Below are positions 571 to 13,528 of a stretch of DNA of 13,528 bases, piece by piece. The stretch's first letter is position 1, and each line of letters opens with the position of its first letter. Origin of the DNA: a virus (lineage: Duplodnaviria; Heunggongvirae; Uroviricota; Caudoviricetes); IMG/VR virus record IMGVR_UViG_2778261256_000011; one strand, 5' to 3'. The translations under genes and the position numbers were made by a program. A model generated the notes under the pieces. The model worked only from the letters and a program-made list of their open reading frames with translations. It was not told the DNA's origin and did no database searches.

Positions 571-3500
571 ATGAAGGCTCTGATGGTCAGAACTGACTTC
601 TCCCTGGGAGAGTCGGCTCTAAAAGCAGAAAACGCGGTGAAAATCGCGAGAGACGCTGGCTACACCGCTGTCATTTCCGCCGACAGCATGAATATTGCCA
701 GTGTAATCCCTCTGCAACGTGCCGCTGGCGACGACATGTCGGTAATTTGTGGCGTTAAGCTGAATGTTGTCGACGATCCGACATACGAGCACCGCGCTCG
801 CTTGGCGAAAGAGTCAGGAAGATGTATGGAATCATTAGTTCGTGATCGCAGCTACTGTTTCACGGCACTGATAAAGAATGAACAAGGTTATCGCGACGTG
901 TGCGAACTGATGACCTTAGCGAACAAACGCGAGCAATTCTACTTTGTCCCGCGTCTGGCGCTTGAGCAGCTGGCAGCCGCATATGCCAAAGGCAACATCA
1001 TCCTGCTGACGTCCGACATTGGCAGTGTATTCCAGCGCCGGGACTTCGCAAAAATTATCGGGACGCTGGTCACAGCTGGCGGTCGCGATAACTTCTACAG
1101 CGTGGTTTATCCGCACCCTACCCCATTCTACGACCAGATTAACGTCCGGGCGATGAAAGTGGCGAGCGCACTGAAAATAGAGCCAGTGGCGTTCTATCCC
1201 GCTTATTACGAAGCGATCGACGACGCTGACATTAAAGACATTGCGCACATGGTTACGAACAACATCAAAATCGACCAGCCGCATCGTCTGCGCATCCCCC
1301 ACCAGCGAGATAACGCTGTTAATGGTCGTCGCCATCTCCTTGAAGCGCTGAAAGCCTTCTCCGTTCGCATGGGCGTACCGGTAACAGCTGCAATGGCCTC
1401 AACAACGCAGGACACCATTATTGAAGCCTGCACATGGCGCTGGCATGAACTGCCACCAGCACTGCCCAAGATGGCAGACGACGAGCCTGCAACGCTGATG
1501 AAGCTGGCTGTCGCGGGGCTACGCAAGCGTCTAACTACTAAAGAGTTTGGCTACACACCACAGGCTTCTGAGCACCGAGTGTATGTTGAGCGACTGAAGT
1601 ACGAAATGGACACACTGACCCGTCTGGGCTTCTGTGGCTACTTCCTGATGGTACGCGATCTGATGAATCACAGCCGTGAAACTGGCATTCCTGTCGGGCC
1701 AGGTCGTGGTTCCTCTGCCGGTTCTCTGGTGGCGTGGTGCATAGGCATAACCAACGTCGATCCTATCCGTCACGGTCTTCTGTTTGAGCGTTTCATCAAC
1801 CCTGAACGTCTTGACTTACCGGATGCGGATCTGGACTTCAGCCAGGCACGTCGTCATGAGGTGATCGAGTATCTGAATGAACGCTATGGCGAAGATTACG
1901 TTGCCGGTATTCCAAACTTCACCTATCTGGGCGCCGCTTCTGCGCTGCGAGACACTGCGCGTATTTACGGTGTCGACGCTGCGGATATGGCGGTATCCAA
2001 AGAGTTCAAGAATCTGGAAGACGATAGCCTGTCTCTGGAAGAGCTGCGCGAGCAACTGGCCAGCCTGGACAAATACGCCACGAAAAACCCGGAAGCGTTC
2101 AAAGCGGCGTGTAAGCTACAAAGCCTGATGCGTGGTTTTGGCCGTCATGCAGCGGGGATGATCGTCGCTGGCGTTCCACTGGTAGAGCGCACGCCCGTCG
2201 AGCTGCGTGGCAACGCTCGCTGTATTGCATTCGATAAACGTTACTGCGAGGCAATGGGGCTGATTAAGCTGGACGTTCTCGGTCTGGCAACGCTCGATCT
2301 GCTGGATAGCGCGAAACGCTACATCAAAGAGAGTACCGGGGAAGACATCAATCTCGATGCTATCCCACTGGACGATCGCAAAGTTCTGGATGGGTTCGCT
2401 GCAGGGTACACTCAGGGCGTATTCCAGCTGGAGTCCGGCCCCATGCGCAAGCTGCTTAAAGATCTGGGCGGTGGCATTGAGCCAATGAGCTTCAAAACCG
2501 TTGTCGCCACGACCGCACTCTTCCGACCTGGCCCGATTCAATCAGGCATGTTGGACGACTATGTCTCCGTGGCCAAAGGCTTCATGGCTCCACATTCAAT
2601 TCATCCGCGTCTTGAGGAAGTCACCCGGGAGACTAATGGTGTTTTGCTCTATCAGGAACAAATCATGCAAAGTTCCCGAGTACTTGCCGGGTTCTCTATG
2701 GCCGAAGCAGACGCTCTGCGTTCCGCTATCGGTAAAAAGAACATGGATAAGATGAAAGCGATCGGCAGCGATTTTGTAGAACGAGCACAAGCAGGCTGGG
2801 TGACACTGTCACTCAAAAATGGAGGTACTGTAGAGGTTCACAAACACGCAAAACTGGATTGCTCAGACGGTAAGCGTAGAAGCTACAGCGAGGCTATTAG
2901 TGACGGCATAGACTACGTGGAGATCGTCTCTGAACAAGAAGGTCTCAGTAAGGAAAAAGCCCAAGAAATATGGGACGCCTTTGAGAAGTTCGGTGGATAT
3001 GCCTTCAACAAATCACACAGCGTTGCTTATTCTTTAATCAGCTATCAGTCTATGTGGTTAAAGACACATTACCCTGCTGAGTTCTTCGCTGCTGCGCTCA
3101 CCATTCTGGGCGAGGATAAGCACCAGGGCTTAGTTAAAGATGCGCTGACCTATGGCATTCGCGTATTGCCACCAGACGTTAACGTGTCATCTAACCGAAT
3201 TGAGATCCGCACGCTGGAAGACGGCAGTCAGGTTCTGTATGCACCATTCTCTGCTGTGAAAGGCTGCTCTGAGAATGGTTGCCAGGCCATCATGAGAGCG
3301 CGTGAGAAAGTTGGCGGCAAATTCGAATCACTGGCGCAATTTGAGGAATCTGTCGAGAAGCGAGCATGTAATAGCCGGGTACGCGAGTCGCTGCAAAAAG
3401 TCGGTGCGTTCGCATCGATTGAGCCTGGCTGTCTGCCAGCGACAGATCCGGAACGACTGCGCGACCAGGCAGAGTTGATGGGCAATCTGGTGATCGACGC

Positions 3501-4775: not shown

Positions 4776-5207
4776 ATGAGCACCGATATCTACGAAAAAA
4801 TCATGTCCGATCTGGAGTTCGACCGCGACAATCTGGAGGAAGTCTGGCGTCAGCAACCGCGTCTGTTGATGGAGTATGGCTCTAAGCTGGCACGGGCAGA
4901 ACGTGAGGTTGCAGATGCAAAACTCTCTCTCGACGCGATCGAGGCAAAAATCTATGACAACGAGCGTAAGAGCTTGAGTATGAATGGAATTAAGTTTAAT
5001 GAATCCGTACTGGAAGCGAAGGTTAGAACCAACCCGCAATACCTCGCAAAGCGCCAGAAACTCGACGATGCTCGACACATTGCAGACCTGTACAAGCACG
5101 CTGTAGCCGCCTTCTCCCACCGCCGCGATATGATTGTCCAGGCGTCGAAGATGGCTATCGTAGAGATAGAGCGTCTGGGGGCCGAACGATTCCATTTACC
5201 CCGTTAA
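4776..5207 (+). CDS. Hypothetical charged, predicted coiled-coil protein (143 aa from ATG 4776; the ORF track's alternative start at 4734 gives 157 aa)
   Basis: Open frame with protein-like composition (ARAEREVADAKLSLDAIEAKIYDNERKSL). The overlapping minus-strand ORF 4686-5195 has Cys-rich, non-protein-like composition. Neither candidate start has a clear Shine-Dalgarno; 4776 was chosen because the conserved motif copy lies immediately upstream of it. Confidence 0.45.
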   Translation: MSTDIYEKIMSDLEFDRDNLEEVWRQQPRLLMEYGSKLARAEREVADAKLSLDAIEAKIYDNERKSLSMNGIKFNESVLEAKVRTNPQYLAKRQKLDDARHIADLYKHAVAAFSHRRDMIVQASKMAIVEIERLGAERFHLPR

Positions 5208-6403: not shown

Positions 6404-7348
6404 GTGAATTATCTCTTTGTGGACGGTAACAGCCTGGGCTATTACCACCAGCAATCCGACAAATTACACAACGGCGAGATGGAAGTTCAGGCGGCTTTTG
6501 GCTTCGTGAAGAACGTTCGTCGTTACGCCTCAATTCTCCATGCCCGGCCAATGATCTTGTGGGATGGATTCAGCGACAAACGTCGCGACTTCTACCCGGA
6601 GTACAAAGCGAACCGCGACGACGACCCGGACATGAAGAAGATGAAAGAAGGCTTTGCCATCCAGAAGCCGTACATCTTGAAAATGATGACCGCGCTGGGC
6701 GTTAACCAACTCATTGCAAAGGACGCAGAAGCGGATGACCTGGCTGGAATGCTGGTCTCTCGTCTGGCTCCGCAGCCGACTGTTGACCATATCTATCTGC
6801 TAACGGGCGATGGCGACTGGCTCCAGCTTGTTCGTGAGAACGTGAGCTGGATAAGCCTGCGTGAAGACGCCAAGCACAAGCAGGTGAACTTCGAACAGTT
6901 CGCAGAGCTGACCGGTCTGCCGACCCCACGCGCGTTTCTGGAAGCGAAAGCGTTGCAGGGCGATAACTCGGACAACATCAAAGGCGTAGGTGGCATTGGT
7001 GATGGTGGCGCGAAAGAGCTGCTTCATGAATGGGGAAGCGTGGCCGCAATGGTACGCGGCATTAACGACGGTTCCATTGTCATCAACAAAGGTCGCTATA
7101 AGACGGCATTCAACAAGCTGGCAAAGAACGCCTTCAACGAGAAGACGGGCTGCCGGATGCTCGAAGCCTTTAAGCGCAACATGATGCTGATGAACCTTAT
7201 CGACACAAAATTCCCACCCAGCGAAATCGAGTCGATTAAAGGCGCACGCGATATGAGCGCCTTTGAACAGATGTGTTACGAGCTGAATTTCCGTTCGTTT
7301 CTGGAAGATCTGGAAGTGTTTGTTCTGCCGTTTGAGAGGTATTGCTGA
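6404..7348 (+). CDS. 5'-3' exonuclease / flap endonuclease (DNA Pol I 5'-nuclease / T5 D15 / T4 RNase H family), GTG start
   Basis: Conserved family motifs: LFVDGNSLGYY (N-terminal metal site), EADDLAGMLVS, LLTGDGDWLQL, and the H3TH motif ALQGDNSDNIKGVGGIGDGGAKELL. The GTG at 6404 is 7 nt after GGAAGGAG and lies just downstream of the terminator hairpin; the ATG at 6353 used by the ORF track would put the hairpin inside the coding sequence. TGA stop at 7346-7348 overlaps the next ATG (TGATG). Confidence 0.85.
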   Translation: MNYLFVDGNSLGYYHQQSDKLHNGEMEVQAAFGFVKNVRRYASILHARPMILWDGFSDKRRDFYPEYKANRDDDPDMKKMKEGFAIQKPYILKMMTALGVNQLIAKDAEADDLAGMLVSRLAPQPTVDHIYLLTGDGDWLQLVRENVSWISLREDAKHKQVNFEQFAELTGLPTPRAFLEAKALQGDNSDNIKGVGGIGDGGAKELLHEWGSVAAMVRGINDGSIVINKGRYKTAFNKLAKNAFNEKTGCRMLEAFKRNMMLMNLIDTKFPPSEIESIKGARDMSAFEQMCYELNFRSFLEDLEVFVLPFERYC

Positions 7349-7614
7349 TGCTGAAATCCATCATTAATGGCGGGGCAACTACGCCAACCATGCTGGCAAA
7401 GGAGATTGTTTTCTGCCACGGCGAGCACGCTGTGGTAGCGCTGCCGAACATTCTGGGCGCTGCTGGCATCTCTGCTACTGAGCGTGAGTTCGCGCTGGTC
7501 AGTGAGCAGGTCGTGAAGATCATCGCTCGCGTCGCCAAACACCTGAACCACGACGCAATCAAGTTTGACGAAGCCGCTGCTTCGAAGCGAATCAACGAAT
7601 CAAAAGGAGCCTAA
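7348..7614 (+). CDS. Hypothetical 88-aa protein, translationally coupled between the nuclease gene and recA
   Basis: ATG overlaps the upstream TGA; TAA stop 2 nt before the recA ATG; GAGG about 9 nt upstream. No recognisable motifs. Confidence 0.5.
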   Translation: MLKSIINGGATTPTMLAKEIVFCHGEHAVVALPNILGAAGISATEREFALVSEQVVKIIARVAKHLNHDAIKFDEAAASKRINESKGA

Positions 7615-7616
7615 TC

Positions 7617-9959
7617 ATGGCAAAAGGCAAATCCGCACTGGCACTGGCGCTGAAAAAGAAAATCGGCAGCAATGACGAGATTCAGAAGGTCTCCCACTGG
7701 ATTGACTCCGGTTTCCCTCCACTGAACAAAGCCATTTCCTGACGTTACGACGGTGGTTTTCCGTGTGGGCGTATCGTTGAAGTCTTCGGGCCACCAAGCG
7801 CGGGGAAATGTGTTACCGCAGACACCATGCTGCTGACGGAGCGTGGAATGGTAACAGTGAAAGAACTGTTTGAGATTGAGGGGCACAAAGCAACATGCAC
7901 TACTCGCGATGTAGAGCATAACGTTGGACTCATCAATGAAAATGGCGTGATAGAGAAGACCTCACACCTGACATGGAACAACCGTCGCAAATTCAAGCGC
8001 ATTAAGCTGGCATCAGGGGGTTACATCGAGGCTACGTTCCGTCACCCAATTCGTGTGGTTGACGACTTAGGCAATATCGTCTGGCGGTATGCTGAAAAAA
8101 TCAGTGTAGGCGACACGATTCCTTCAATGGTTGGCACACATCAATTCGGCGATCAGCACTTGGATGCCAATATCGCAAAACTGATGGGCTATTTAATTGC
8201 TGACGGATACGTGGCCTCTGAAAATTCTGTGCATTTTTCTAACACAGATCCATTCATCAAGGATGAGTACTACCGCCTCATTTCGCTGGTATCAGACAAG
8301 ATGCCAGTTACGAGAAAACATAACGGCTCGGAAGACCATGTGCTGTTTAGCAAAGAGGTGCGTTCGCTGCTTTTTAAAGAATATGGTCTGGAGTATGAGA
8401 AAGCTGCTGGCAAGCAGGTTCCGTTGAGTGTGCGTCGCGCCAATAGCGAGGCTCAAATTGCATTCCTTCGCGGCTACTTTGAGCTGGAATGCCACGTCAA
8501 TGATGGTCGCTGCATTGAGGTTGTGAGCGCGAGTGGGTTGCTGCTACAGCAAATTCGCCTCATGCTCCTGAATCTGGGGATTACGTCAACTATCTCTGAA
8601 AAACACGTCGCAGGTTATAAAAACATATATTACCGGCTGTCATTCAGTGGCTCTAACTACGACCTTTTCCTGTCAACGATTGGGTTCGAGTCTCCGGCTC
8701 GTTTAGCAGTGGCAACCAAACGGGACATTAGTTTTGACCGCACTTATTTAGGCTACGTTCCGCACATCAGCGGCTTAGTGAAATCACTCTACGAGTCACT
8801 CACCAAGACCTCTCGTAAAGACTACGTTCTGGTAGATCACGTTATTGGCCGCGGCGATCGTGTCGGAATAGACAAACTGCGAGAAATCTATGTCTCCTTC
8901 ATTGGCAGAAAGAATCGTTTTAACGAGCATCTGTTTGCACAACTGGCAGCGGTAATTGACTCTAACTTGTTCTACGACGAAGTCGTGGCTATTGAGGAAG
9001 GTGAAGCACCAACGTTCGACGTAGCGATGCCGGAAACACACTCTTTCTGGTCTAACGGGATTATCAGCCACAACACATTCCTCGCGACGGCTGCGATGGT
9101 GTCAGCACAAACACAGGATGGTCTGGCCGTATTCCTTGACCACGAAAACAGTTTCGACGTTGGTCTGGCGGTAGCGAACGGACTGAACGCCGACGAAGAC
9201 GACGGTCAGTGGGTCTACAAACAGCCGGATACCTTCGAAGACTCCGTAGAGCTGATCGGCACAATCCTCAAGCTGGTGCGCGACGAAGAGCTTATTCCGG
9301 AAACAGCCCCTATCTGCATCGTAGCCGACTCTCTGGCGTCGATGGTTCCGAACTCGAAGGCTGAGAAGTTCGACAAGATGGCAGAAGGCACTGCGAAGGA
9401 CAAAGATCAGCTGAACATGAACGACAACACGGCGCTGGCGCGCGCGACAAGTGCGAACTTCCCTACTCTGGCGCTTTGGGCGCGTAAGTACAACGCGTGC
9501 ATCATCTTCTTGAACCAGGTGCGTACCAAAATTGGTGTGATGTTTGGCGATCCGACTACGTCTCCGGGTGGCGACTCTCCGAAGTTCTACGCGTCGGTGC
9601 GCATCCGTCTGGGTGCATCCGTCATGAAGGATGGCAAAGAGAAGATCGGACAGGACGTTGGCGCCGAGTGCATTAAAAACAAAGTCGCGCCTCCGTTTGG
9701 CAAATGCTCATGGAAATTCTACTTCGACCCGACTCGCGGGCTGGACGTCGTCGAGTCTCTGGTTGAATACATGCTGGAGGAAGGATACCTGCCCAAGAGC
9801 GCCAGCGGGCGTGTGGAAATTGGCGAGAAGAAATACACCAAATCGCAGATCGTCGAGATGTACCGCGAGAAGCCACTCCCGGAAATCATCGCAGCACTCC
9901 AGGCGATAGACGAACGGCGAGCGAAAGAGTCGTCACCAGCAGAGACAGAAGAAGCGTAA
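7617..9959 (+). CDS. recA: RecA recombinase homologue (bacterial RecA type) interrupted by an intein in the P-loop and by an in-frame TGA in the N-extein; may be a pseudogene or need stop-codon readthrough
   Basis: AAGGAG Shine-Dalgarno 7 nt before ATG 7617. N-extein MAKGKSALALALKKKIGSNDEIQKVSHWIDSGFPPLNKAIS, then TGA (7740-7742), then in the same frame RYDGGFPCGRIVEVFGPPSAGK (Walker A; compare E. coli RecA [21 protein letters not shown]). C-extein TFLATAAMVSAQ ... CIIFLNQVRTKIGVMFGDPTTSPGGDSPKFYASVRIRLGA closely matches RecA [38 protein letters not shown]. No ATG/GTG/TTG lies in frame between the TGA and the P-loop. Spliced product would be about 357 aa. Confidence 0.85.
7809..9074 (+). mobile_element. 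Intein (422 aa) with LAGLIDADG homing endonuclease domain, inserted between the Walker A Lys and the following Thr of RecA
   Basis: Begins with Cys directly after GPPSAGK (CVTADTMLLTE, block A) and ends with SHN followed by a +1 Thr (block G). Block B TxxH is present (ATFRHPIRV). Two LAGLIDADG motifs (LMGYLIADGYV and FLRGYFELECHV). Block F-like VVAIEEGEAPTFDVAMPETHSFWSNGIISHN. Removing the segment restores a contiguous GPPSAGK-TFLATAAM P-loop. Confidence 0.85.
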
Positions 9960-9965
9960 TCACAA

Positions 9966-9987
9966 GACGTCCATTGGACGCCTTTTT
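9966..9987 (+). terminator. Probable rho-independent terminator after recA
   Basis: GACGTCCattGGACGCC: 7-bp stem with one mismatch and a 3-nt loop, followed by TTTTT (9983-9987), 7 nt after the recA TAA. Confidence 0.5.
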
Positions 9988-10002
9988 ATACTTGAAAGTA
10001 TA

Positions 10003-10021
10003 TAAGTACTTACTTATCATT
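10003..10021 (+). promoter_or_regulatory. Copy 3 of bipartite motif TAAGTA-N6-TATCATT (TAAGTActtactTATCATT), 28 nt upstream of ATG 10050
   Basis: Contains the perfect 10-bp palindrome TAAGTACTTA; matches the other two copies in both half-sites and spacing. Confidence 0.3.
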
Positions 10022-10049
10022 TCTACACCCAAACGACAAAAGGAAACAC

Positions 10050-10250
10050 ATGATTAAGGGTTATCTCATGGCTGTTTCAGCAGTGGTATCAGTCTGCTTT
10101 ATTTACGGTTTACTGGTTCCATCGCTTATATCAGCTAAAAGCGATCTGGCCTTCTTTATCGGACTTGCCATCGCTTTAATCTTCCCGGTTGCCTTGTTAA
10201 AAGCTGGCCGCAGGTATATCAACTCACTCAATAAAACTAAGGAGAAGTAA
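10050..10250 (+). CDS. Small (66 aa) predicted two-helix membrane protein
   Basis: Two hydrophobic stretches (AVSAVVSVCFIYGLLVPSLI and LAFFIGLAIALIFPVALL) separated by a short polar turn; basic C-terminus. AGGA 5 nt before the ATG; TAA stop. Confidence 0.5.
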   Translation: MIKGYLMAVSAVVSVCFIYGLLVPSLISAKSDLAFFIGLAIALIFPVALLKAGRRYINSLNKTKEK

Positions 10251-10677: not shown

Positions 10678-13107
10678 ATGGATCATAGTGTACATAACAA
10701 GCTCATCTCATTTATTTGGAACATTGCCGACGACTGTTTACGTGATGTGTACGTTCGCGGTAAGTACCGCGATGTGATTTTACCTATGGTGGTATTACGA
10801 CGTTTAGATACGTTACTTGAACCCACCAAAGAAGCCGTGCTTGAAGAGGTCAAGTTCCAAAAAGAAGAGATGCAAGCCACGGAGCTTGATGATGAACCAT
10901 TGAAGGCGGCTAGTGGTTATGTTTTTTACAATACATCTAAATGGACCCTGAAATCCCTGTTCAACACCGCAACGAATAACCAACAGATATTACTCGCCAA
11001 CTTTGAAGAGTACCTGCTTGGCTTTAGCGATAATGTTAAAGAAATCATTGAATGCTTTAACCTCAAGTTGCAAATTCGTCACATGGCCTCAAAGCAAGTC
11101 CTTCTTGATGTCGTCGAAAAGTTTGTTTCCCCTTACATCAACTTAACTCATGAAACGGTCGAAGACCCAGATGGCAACAAGATGCCAGCCCTTACTAACC
11201 TGGGTATGGGGTACGTGTTCGAAGAGTTGATCCGTAAGTTCAACGAGGAGAATAACGAAGAAGCCGGTGAGCACTTTACACCTAGGGAAGTGATTGAGCT
11301 GATGACACACTTGGTTTTTGACCCAGTGAAAGAGCAGCTACCATTGACCATGACCGTTTACGACCCTGCGTGTGGTAGCGGTGGTATGCTCACTGAATCT
11401 CAAAACTTCATTGAAGAGAAATACCCGAACGACAGCCGAGATATTTACCTTTACGGCAAAGAGATCAATGACGAGACCTACGCGATTTGTAAATCGGACA
11501 TGATGATCAAAGGTAACAACCCTGAGAACATCAAGGTAGGCTCAACCTTGTCTACCGACGAGTTTGCGGCTTCTCGCTTTGACTTTATGTTGTCTAACCC
11601 GCCATACGGTAAGAGTTGGGCGTCTGAACAGAAGTACATTAAAGACGGCAGTGATGTGATTGACCCGCGTTTTAAGGTTAGCCTGAAAGACTATTGGGGA
11701 AATCTCGAAGTGGTGGATGCCACGCCACGTTCGAGTGATGGCCAGCTGCTTTTCTTAATGGAGATGGTCAACAAGATGAAAGATCCGAGCGTAAGTCCAT
11801 TAGGCAGCCGGATTGCCTCTGTTCATAACGGCTCATCGCTCTTTACCGGTGATGCGGGCAGTGGCGAAAGTAATATTCGTCGCTTCATCATTGAAAACGA
11901 CATGCTAGATGCCATCGTTCAGTTACCTAATAACCTGTTCTATAACACTGGCATTACCACTTACATTTGGGTGTTGAACAACAATAAACCTGAGGCGCGT
12001 AAAGGTAAGGTGCAATTAATTGATGCCAGCTTGCTCTACCGTAAGTTGCGCAAGAACTTAGGTAACAAAAACTGCGAATTTGCGCCTGAGCACATCACGG
12101 AAATTACCGATACTTACCTCGCGTGTAAGGATGTTGAAAGAGCACTGGATGCAAACAATGATCCTGTTGGCATCGCCAGTAAGGTATTCAGCAATGACGA
12201 TTTTGGCTACTACAAAGTCACTATAGAGCGCCCAGATCGCCGCAAAGCCAAGTTTACTCAAGACGCAATAGCCCCACTGCGTTTTGATAAGCAACTTAGT
12301 GAAGTGATGGAGTACGTGTACGCAGAGCACGGCGAACGTGTTTACGAAAAAACTGGCTACGGGTCAGCTCAGAAAAAGAGCTTCTTAAAATCCATCGAGA
12401 AAGACATTCTTTCTTGGTGTGAAGATAACGACATCAGTCTCAATGCTAAGGCTAAGGCCAAACTGCTTGATGTGAAACACTGGCTGGCGCTAAAAGCATT
12501 GCTTGAAACTGCACAAACGCTGATGGCTGACATCGGTAGCATTGAATTTGATGACTTCAATAGCTTTAAAACCCAAGTTGATAAATCGCTAAAAGCCCAT
12601 GCTATTAAGCTTTCAGCACCTGAGAAAAATGCCATTCTTCACGCGGTGAGCTGGTATGACGAAACCGCCAAGAAAGTGGTTAAAAAGGTAGTTAAATTAA
12701 CGGGTGATAAATTAAACGACCTGCTGGAGCGCTATGAGTGTGAAGTCGCTGACTTGCCAGATTTTGGTTATTACCCCGTTCCTTCAGCAGAAGGCGGTAA
12801 AAAAGGCGAGTATATCACTTACGAGACCAATTCAGACCTGCGAGATACAGAATCTGTTCCATTAAAGCAAAGCATTTACCAGTACTTCCTAGATGAAGTG
12901 AAGCCTCATGTCGATGAAGCATGGATAAACCTAGATACGGTAAAAATTGGCTATGAAATCAGCTTCAATAAGTATTTCTACCGTCATAAACCGCTGCGTA
13001 GTTTAGAAGAGGTCGCAACCGACATCATCAACCTAGAACAAAAAGCCGAAGGTCTCATTGCGCAGATATTGGGTGTTAAAGTGGCGGAAGCTCAGGGAGA
13101 AGCGTAA
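10678..13107 (+). CDS. hsdM: Type I restriction-modification system methyltransferase subunit HsdM (long form, about 809 aa, with C-terminal extension)
   Basis: N-terminal HsdM domain (ISFIWNIADDCLRDVYVRGKYRDVILPMVVLRRLD), AdoMet motif I VYDPACGSGGML, and N6-adenine catalytic motif IV LSNPPYG. Start moved to ATG 10678 (AGGA 7 nt upstream) rather than the upstream alternative-codon start at 10642. TAA stop overlaps the next ATG (TAATG). Confidence 0.85.
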   Translation: MDHSVHNKLISFIWNIADDCLRDVYVRGKYRDVILPMVVLRRLDTLLEPTKEAVLEEVKFQKEEMQATELDDEPLKAASGYVFYNTSKWTLKSLFNTATNNQQILLANFEEYLLGFSDNVKEIIECFNLKLQIRHMASKQVLLDVVEKFVSPYINLTHETVEDPDGNKMPALTNLGMGYVFEELIRKFNEENNEEAGEHFTPREVIELMTHLVFDPVKEQLPLTMTVYDPACGSGGMLTESQNFIEEKYPNDSRDIYLYGKEINDETYAICKSDMMIKGNNPENIKVGSTLSTDEFAASRFDFMLSNPPYGKSWASEQKYIKDGSDVIDPRFKVSLKDYWGNLEVVDATPRSSDGQLLFLMEMVNKMKDPSVSPLGSRIASVHNGSSLFTGDAGSGESNIRRFIIENDMLDAIVQLPNNLFYNTGITTYIWVLNNNKPEARKGKVQLIDASLLYRKLRKNLGNKNCEFAPEHITEITDTYLACKDVERALDANNDPVGIASKVFSNDDFGYYKVTIERPDRRKAKFTQDAIAPLRFDKQLSEVMEYVYAEHGERVYEKTGYGSAQKKSFLKSIEKDILSWCEDNDISLNAKAKAKLLDVKHWLALKALLETAQTLMADIGSIEFDDFNSFKTQVDKSLKAHAIKLSAPEKNAILHAVSWYDETAKKVVKKVVKLTGDKLNDLLERYECEVADLPDFGYYPVPSAEGGKKGEYITYETNSDLRDTESVPLKQSIYQYFLDEVKPHVDEAWINLDTVKIGYEISFNKYFYRHKPLRSLEEVATDIINLEQKAEGLIAQILGVKVAEAQGEA

Positions 13108-13528
13108 TGGAGCGTTTAGCATTGATGCCGAAATATGAGGATTATGTAGATTCTGGAGTTGAATGGTTAGGGGATTTACCGAGCCATTGGGACGCAGTAA
13201 AAATGAAGTTTCTTTTCAAAGATACGTCGATGAAAAACAAGCCTAACGAAACTTTATTATCTGTTACACAAAGTCAAGGTGTTGTTCCCAGAGAGTGGGT
13301 AGAAAACAGAATGGTTATGCCATCTGGCAATCTAGAAAGCTTCAAGTTCATTGCAAAAGGTGACTTTGCTATAAGCCTTCGTTCCTTTGAAGGTGGTTTG
13401 GAGTATTGTCATCATGATGGAATCATAAGCCCTGCTTATACGGTGTTAAAAACTAAGAAAGATTATCTACTTGCAGGATATTACAAATATTTGTTTAAAA
13501 GTCAGACTTTTATTTCAGAGTTACAAAC
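13107..13528 (+). CDS. hsdS: Type I restriction-modification specificity subunit HsdS, 5' portion only (runs off the window end)
   Basis: Translationally coupled to hsdM. Translation MERLALMPKYEDYVDSGVEWLGDLPSHWDAVKMKFLFK ... KGDFAISLRSFEGGLEYCHHDGIISPAYTVLKTKKDYLLAGYYKYLFKSQTF fits the HsdS target-recognition-domain pattern. It is absent from the ORF track because no stop is reached before the window ends. Confidence 0.75.
   Translation, partial: MERLALMPKYEDYVDSGVEWLGDLPSHWDAVKMKFLFKDTSMKNKPNETLLSVTQSQGVVPREWVENRMVMPSGNLESFKFIAKGDFAISLRSFEGGLEYCHHDGIISPAYTVLKTKKDYLLAGYYKYLFKSQTFISELQ

Follow-up and report, generated by a model that had tools for sequence, protein, structure and literature searches.

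The 13,528-nucleotide viral sequence IMGVR_UViG_2778261256_000011 (the whole of which we call the window) carries on its plus strand an intein-containing recA-like gene (7617-9959) whose forty-second codon is a premature TGA (G42*, 7740-7742). Most probably, replacement of G by T at 7740 turned the Gly42 codon GGA into this TGA, a recent one-base nonsense mutation that inactivated the recA-like gene of a phage-plasmid of the SSU5 type. Translation would then begin at ATG 7617, which a strong Shine-Dalgarno sequence precedes, and would stop 41 codons later, such that neither the recombinase nor the homing endonuclease of the intein would be made in meaningful amounts. Full-length precursor would arise only via background misreading of UGA, at about 10^-3 to 10^-2, and in it the family's fixed glycine would be replaced by a bulky residue, probably Trp. 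If true, the element has lost its own recombinase and intein homing activity and presumably tolerates this loss, which would fit a gene that is dispensable for life as a plasmid. The original prediction, made from the letters of the sequence, held that a functional protein needs readthrough or recoding at this TGA; a recent pseudogene and a sequencing error were correctly named there as the alternatives, and it is the former that we favour here.

A single TGA interrupts an otherwise open recA-like gene

Direct reading of the sequence and translation confirmed that the TGA is in frame, follows 41 codons and is itself directly followed by C (7743). Single-frame translation of 7617-9962 yielded 41 residues, one stop, RYDGGFPCGRIVEVFGPPSAGK, the intein and the C-extein, with no internal stop in that frame besides the TGA at 7740-7742, and comparison with relatives likewise revealed no other stop or frameshift in the recA-like gene. 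From the TGA to the P-loop the list of open reading frames (ORFs) has no in-frame ATG, GTG or TTG, just as had been claimed, the earliest one 3' of the TGA being ATG 7827, inside the intein and beyond the P-loop. That TGA acts as a genuine stop nearby also holds, in that the upstream exonuclease gene is terminated by TGA at 7346-7348 with another TGA one codon on (7352-7354), and TAA terminates the remaining eight genes of the window.

Continuity of the N-terminal part and the P-loop with RecA, also proposed from the sequence, stood up to comparison. The intein-less RecA-like recombinase of SSU5 aligns across the site, and a reconstructed spliced protein, in which codon 42 was set back to Gly and the 422-residue insert removed, matched Pfam RecA (PF00154; E = 5.4e-42, 144.5 bits against a cut-off of 27) over residues 29-281, a match that spans codon 42. 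The same protein matched E. coli RecA chains in the PDB at about 1e-31 to 1e-35, the Pfam and PDB RecA matches extend to about residue 315 of the spliced protein, and the Walker A motif GPPSAGKT corresponds to GPESSGKT in E. coli RecA. By homology, then, the gene product belongs to the RecA family of recombinases, Walker A included. A lesion with a one-step origin, no rescuing start and a gene that is otherwise intact would together be typical of a recent pseudogene, and all three apply here.

Relatives carry glycine at codon 42

A degenerate-flank search with codon 42 left free returned 112 loci, and in 111 of these the codon encodes glycine (GGA 43, GGT 38, GGG 27, GGC 3), the remaining one being TGA; the complete copies among these loci are all open, save the TGA one. 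With fixed flanks and a free codon, GGA was found in 34 of 34 loci, and in ten relatives aligned from the start codon the codon was GGA, GGT or GGG, with genes open for 358 or 779-781 codons. That all four synonymous codons are in use points to purifying selection that keeps a glycine rather than a stop at this position, which by our own hand alignment we match to the glycine in the LG(A)GG turn that immediately precedes RecA's first strand. TGG (Trp) was seen at codon 42 in no relative among the 112 loci. At the seven closest relatives the base at 7740 is G in every case, and the stop is thus one G-to-T step from GGA.

The TGA form was looked for directly as well. Exact matches to the 83 bases around the stop were found in 0 of 253 plasmids, all of which fall in the 95-99% band, and the best-matching plasmids among those listed differ from the window at 1 of the 83 positions. 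The exact TGA-bearing 29-mer is absent from genome, viral and metagenome collections, and the degenerate-flank TGA version had no matches in IMG/VR or JGI metagenomes, with the GGN version being present in 91 IMG/VR stretches. Dependence of the gene on readthrough or recoding is therefore not borne out, given GGN at this codon in 111 of 112 loci and the absence of the TGA from all 253 plasmids. The original prediction had itself suggested reading this codon in orthologues, and had held that decayed orthologues would point to plain loss of the gene; the relatives proved to carry a sense codon (glycine), and frameshifted recA copies were found in others of them (see below), both of which speak against recoding.

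Comparison to named elements places the same gene on both sides of the intein's distribution. SSU5 (SSU5_060, AFL46987.1), pMT1 of Yersinia pestis and pHCM2 of Salmonella Typhi have it in the same neighbourhood as the window, in the common order dnaE, gp32-like gene, 5'-3' exonuclease, small ORF and recA, with exteins at about 97% DNA identity, and there the gene runs uninterrupted for 358 codons, has no intein and reads GGA at codon 42. The intein-containing RecA of IncFIB phage-plasmids of E. coli, Enterobacter and Citrobacter has the same intein at the same P-loop site, examples being pYUXYEH3934-1 (WP_266059207.1; 99.7% identical to the window over 7300-10100) and WP_022649903.1, both annotated as 'intein-containing recombinase RecA'. 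Their reading frames stay open through 779-781 codons and have GGA as codon 42, where the window has TGA.

Signals for recoding around the stop codon

Evaluating the surroundings of the stop further, we found nothing that would set it apart from an ordinary glycine codon's context. The flanking bases of the TGA are identical to those of GGA-bearing relatives, and in each of the ten relatives placed via their start codon an Arg codon, CGT or CGC, comes right after codon 42 and begins with this C, which argues that the C after the stop is inherited and did not evolve for leakiness. Folding of 7735-7810 (76 bases) gave z = -0.62 against shuffles, which is not significant, and 7500-8000 had no Rfam match at E-values up to 10, hence no selenocysteine insertion sequence (SECIS). 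No tRNA genes were found in the window or in 16 kb of its nearest relative, and a scan of SSU5 (99.8 of 103.3 kb) returned only tRNA-Asn(GTT) and a doubtful call of tRNA-Lys(TTT).

Recoding at prfB, the E. coli gene for release factor 2 (RF2), also employs an upstream Shine-Dalgarno-like stimulator, and none of that type is present at the window's stop. The prfB site (CUU UGA C) resembles the window in that UGA is followed by C and termination is weak (PMC5289835). According to the same source that site is conserved and acts by +1 frameshifting; the window's stop, by contrast, lacks conservation, and the sequence beyond it continues in the zero frame.

The published data on UGA readthrough cut both ways. 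A weak termination context for UGA-C in E. coli, which the original prediction had proposed, has backing in the literature, where a C 3' of UGA weakens termination (Poole et al. 1995, cited in PMC5289835), and the same review reports that tRNA-Trp misreads UGA more readily when A, and not C, comes next (Engelberg-Kulka 1981). Ribosome profiling detected UGA readthrough products in K-12, whose RF2 is weak, and these were gone with the E. coli B-type RF2, a better terminator at UGA than the K-12 protein (PMC5373646). The K-12 RF2 has Thr246. A background rate of 10^-3 to 10^-2 is quoted for stop-codon readthrough (PMC10570021). A programmed readthrough site would be recognised by a conserved stop and by a stimulatory context or structure, and neither was found at codon 42. 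Some trace of full-length protein would be expected for any UGA, and nothing in this sequence suggests more.

Loss of recA elsewhere in the family

Disrupted recA copies in other SSU5-like relatives indicate that a loss of this kind would not be singular. The protein collection holds short N-terminal RecA fragments (P0003, P0004, P0007, P0013, P0026, P0038 and P0043), the contigs of P0003, P0004, P0013, P0026 and P0038 being 108-115 kb long and that of P0043 110.8 kb. Among the disrupted alleles are copies that have lost a single base in the C-run of codons 33-35, copies with a frameshift at codon 52, and others with one just after GK. Simulated loss of one C in 7715-7717 exactly reproduced the product ending ...SGFLH, and we take ...SGFLR, in our own reading of a Klebsiella-type sequence, to be the same one-C deletion. 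The ...SGFPH product, seen only on a 1.3-kb contig, was reproduced by simulated deletion at 7718-7720, and a further fragment ending ...CGAYR comes from an Enterobacter plasmid. Three distinct frameshifts right after GK occur in intein-less E. coli copies (P0026, P0038 and P0043, on contigs of about 110 kb). Given these frameshifted copies, recA would seem to be lost sporadically in the SSU5-like family. The family's other disrupted alleles are frameshifts and the window's lesion is a base substitution.

Two features of these alleles can be noted in their own right. The C-rich run TTCCCTCC (7715-7720, codons 33-35) has one-base deletions that recur in relatives of two different backgrounds, and they point either to a hotspot of slippage or to an artefact of homopolymer sequencing. 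The P0026, P0038 and P0043 alleles (GKPFWQRQQ*, GKTWQRQQ* and GKTFWQRQQ*, with the asterisk denoting the stop) all fall exactly at the intein homing site, and may be scars of endonuclease cleavage with faulty repair, or else assembly errors.

Age of the lesion and recurrence of the stop

The window is the entire contig NNVY01000078.1 of assembly GCA_002485945.1, and it differs from its nearest record, pYUXYEH3934-1, by 70 substitutions and zero indels over 13,133 bases. Compared with seven close relatives it has 16 private substitutions, the TGA change among them, and one nonsense hit among so many is unremarkable, provided that the recA-like gene is under weak selection. A contig this clean, with no indels or other broken genes and with 16 private substitutions, favours the T at 7740 being a real allele. 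A quasi-palindrome or repeat that could template this T was sought by eye and rejected, with the sole nearby complementary arm (7800-7807) being one that would template C.

Two sets of observations weigh against a recent random loss of the gene. First, the rest of the recA-like gene has no further decay, its only two other private substitutions being one synonymous change and K499T; the loss must then be very recent. Second, the same TGA at codon 42 is found in an unrelated dataset, on a different haplotype without the intein. This second carrier is contig 65618 (locus L051) of the Logan assembly of ERR11042411, with TGA at 1607-1609 and sequence continuing beyond it. In window coordinates it departs from the window at 7724 and 7769, its exonuclease and gp32-like genes differ at dozens of sites, and its closest relatives are the loci L015 and L031. 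With L051 being so clearly different a haplotype, the shared stop arose twice, moved on a tract of <45 bases, or is a site-specific artefact. Such recurrence is mildly unexpected for a random loss-of-function hit, and a one-step route to a stop at codon 42 exists only in the GGA clade (43 of 112 loci). The intein-less gene offers 116 possible one-step nonsense changes in all.

How much the recurrence means is tempered by how it was found. The second carrier came from a look-up of the 41-residue product, which finds truncations at codon 42 only, so that the comparison is biased. Between them, the dnaE product and the 41-residue product led to the source contig and this second carrier, and the 710-residue ORF product had no match. 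That product was matched on eleven contigs, 9 of which end at codon 41. Control look-ups of truncated products covered lengths 36-45 (including K38* and Y44*) and ten further one-step sites from C50* to E105*; the matches of 54, 63, 75 and 77 residues came from genes cut off, or probably cut off, at a contig end, and therefore provide no clean nonsense baseline. The protein collection lacks N-terminal fragments 36-40 or 42-44 residues long, and with the 41-residue one on eleven contigs this means that contig breaks cluster at codon 42. Among the contigs ending in that codon (L047-L050 and L052-L055), 3 break right before base 7740, 1 after G and 4 after GG. The four breaks after GG fit what is expected from third-position synonymous variation, and the three metagenome contigs that break before base 7740, from SRR069192, SRR16279980 and SRR10692702, would fit coexistence of G and T in those samples.

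Alternative explanations

An error of base calling or assembly, with the real plasmid having GGA and an intact gene, is unlikely in our assessment. The T at 7740 is a single-base difference from all close relatives, the assembly is a draft with an IS1 copy at the end of the contig, and the remainder of the recA-like gene is intact, all of which an error would explain. The consensus nevertheless looks clean, as judged by zero indels against the nearest relative over 13.1 kb and by the other genes being intact, and short-read consensus errors are far rarer than the 16 private substitutions, with only a few per cent of changes making stops by rough estimate. The presence of the same T in the independent dataset ERR11042411 counts against an error as well.

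It is also possible, if quite unlikely, that TGA42 is a tolerated or favoured 'attenuated' allele, in which leakage at UGA-C gives some G42W precursor that is spliced to low amounts of recombinase and endonuclease. The C after UGA, which weakens termination in E. coli (PMC5289835), would help such an allele, as would a frame that is kept and a gene that is otherwise intact, and the identical TGA on a second, clearly different intein-less haplotype is what one would look for. Yet the stop is not conserved (1 of 112 loci, 0 of 253 plasmids), its context is the same as in the GGA relatives such that nothing has evolved around it, and no stimulatory structure is present. Glycine is held by all four of its codons and no relative has TGG, from which a Trp-containing product would probably be impaired. 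Readthrough by tRNA-Trp prefers a following A (PMC5289835), the K-12 readthrough products vanish with the B-type RF2 (PMC5373646), and other relatives lose the gene by frameshift, which lies beyond rescue by readthrough. A more specific form of this idea is in our view very unlikely, namely that TGA42 recurs or is maintained as a 'throttle' allele whose UGA-C holds a toxic recombinase and endonuclease at trace levels in plasmid life. It would draw on the shared G-to-T change of two haplotypes, of which one has the intein and the other does not, and on the three metagenome contigs that break before base 7740.

Ribosomal restart at ATG 7827 or ATC 7773, giving an N-terminally truncated endonuclease or a partial recombinase, seems highly improbable even though a 710-codon ORF does begin at ATG 7827 and the public gene call on the contig, beside the 41-residue ORF, records a 728-residue ORF from the in-frame ATC 7773 (Ile53), whose product would retain the P-loop. 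Neither site has a Shine-Dalgarno sequence, with no AGGAG-like motif at a useful distance in the 25 bases upstream of ATG 7827 and with a strong site only at ATG 7617 (AAGGAG), and ATC is a very poor initiator. The product from 7827 would lack Walker A and the intein's Cys1 and could neither splice normally nor act as RecA, and that from 7773 would be short by 52 N-terminal residues, about 24 of which lie within the Pfam RecA match.

A selenocysteine at this codon, or a host with a variant genetic code, has nothing in its favour other than the stop being UGA, and may be considered effectively refuted by the lack of SECIS or other Rfam matches in 7500-8000 (E up to 10) and of a significant hairpin past the UGA, by relatives that carry Gly and not Cys or Sec, by the TGA that terminates the neighbouring exonuclease gene, and by the family's hosts being Enterobacteriaceae, which use the standard code.

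A nonsense mutation in one copy of a known gene from a known phage-plasmid family would have little biological weight, and its consequences are mainly for annotation. The 41-residue product is on record as WP_280176383.1, 'hypothetical protein [Escherichia coli]', and the locus would be better annotated as one pseudogene or interrupted recA coding sequence than as this protein beside a 728-residue ORF with a non-canonical start. It should also not be cited as a case of recoding.

Layout of the gene and its intein

All features of the gene lie on the plus strand. The Shine-Dalgarno sequence AAGGAG, read at 7604-7609, is the only good ribosome-binding site for the frame, and it precedes the N-terminal part of the N-extein, codons 1-41 (7617-7739, within the ORF 7617-7742), whose 41 residues are identical to the commonest N-terminus of the family (49 of 112 loci). 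The rest of the N-extein follows at 7743-7808, with Walker A (GPPSAGK) at 7788-7808, and would need readthrough to be translated. Next come a 422-codon intein with a LAGLIDADG homing endonuclease (7809-9074), within which the first canonical in-frame start past the stop is intein Met7 at 7827-7829 (ORF 7827-9959), and a C-extein with RecA matches at 9075-9959, including its TAA stop (9957-9959).

The insert at 7809-9074 is by homology a bona fide intein within the Walker A motif, because Pfam matched both Intein_splicing (E = 3.2e-12) and LAGLIDADG_3 (E = 7.6e-19) in it and because its junctions are precise. It is placed after the Walker A lysine, GK|CVTADT...GIISHN|TFLATA, with Cys1, a C-terminal His-Asn and T at +1, and intein-less relatives such as SSU5 read GK|TFLATAAM precisely across the junction. 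Just 5' of the intein, codons 62-63 have synonymous differences (7802 and 7805) that track its presence, being GCG GGG AAA with the intein and GCC GGT AAA without, which is expected under co-conversion or target-site protection.

Source element and gene neighbourhood

The window DNA belongs to an SSU5-like phage-plasmid as judged by identity and gene order. Extein and flanking DNA are 97.1% identical to SSU5, and IncFIB plasmids of E. coli and its relatives match at 97-99.5% identity over about 13 kb with gene order in common.

Some minor differences from these relatives were also observed along the window. Within dnaE, 5 of the 16 window-private substitutions lie within 82 bases (3349-3430), a cluster more suggestive of one short tract recombined from an unsampled relative than of separate mutations. 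The small ORF at 4776-5207 terminates with TAA (5205-5207) where pYUXYEH3934-1 has CAA and runs seven codons longer; we considered this difference, Q144* at 5205, as a second lesion and rejected it, since the 143-residue product is found in six other close relatives. Bases 1-89 are the end of an IS1 copy ('IS1 family transposase' is annotated under the match), with the exact boundary at base 89 being our own reading from the IS1 terminal repeat. The stretch at 90-395 is foreign to the phage-plasmid relatives, whose homology begins at 396, just past the end of the AAA ATPase gene, and IS1 together with the adjoining stretch is common to 136 plasmids. Downstream of recA, 10678-13528 contains type I restriction-modification genes, one for an hsdM-like methyltransferase and the first part of one for an S subunit. 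This module is present in the E. coli relatives fetched and not in SSU5, where an SPFH-domain gene and a NinX-like gene are found.

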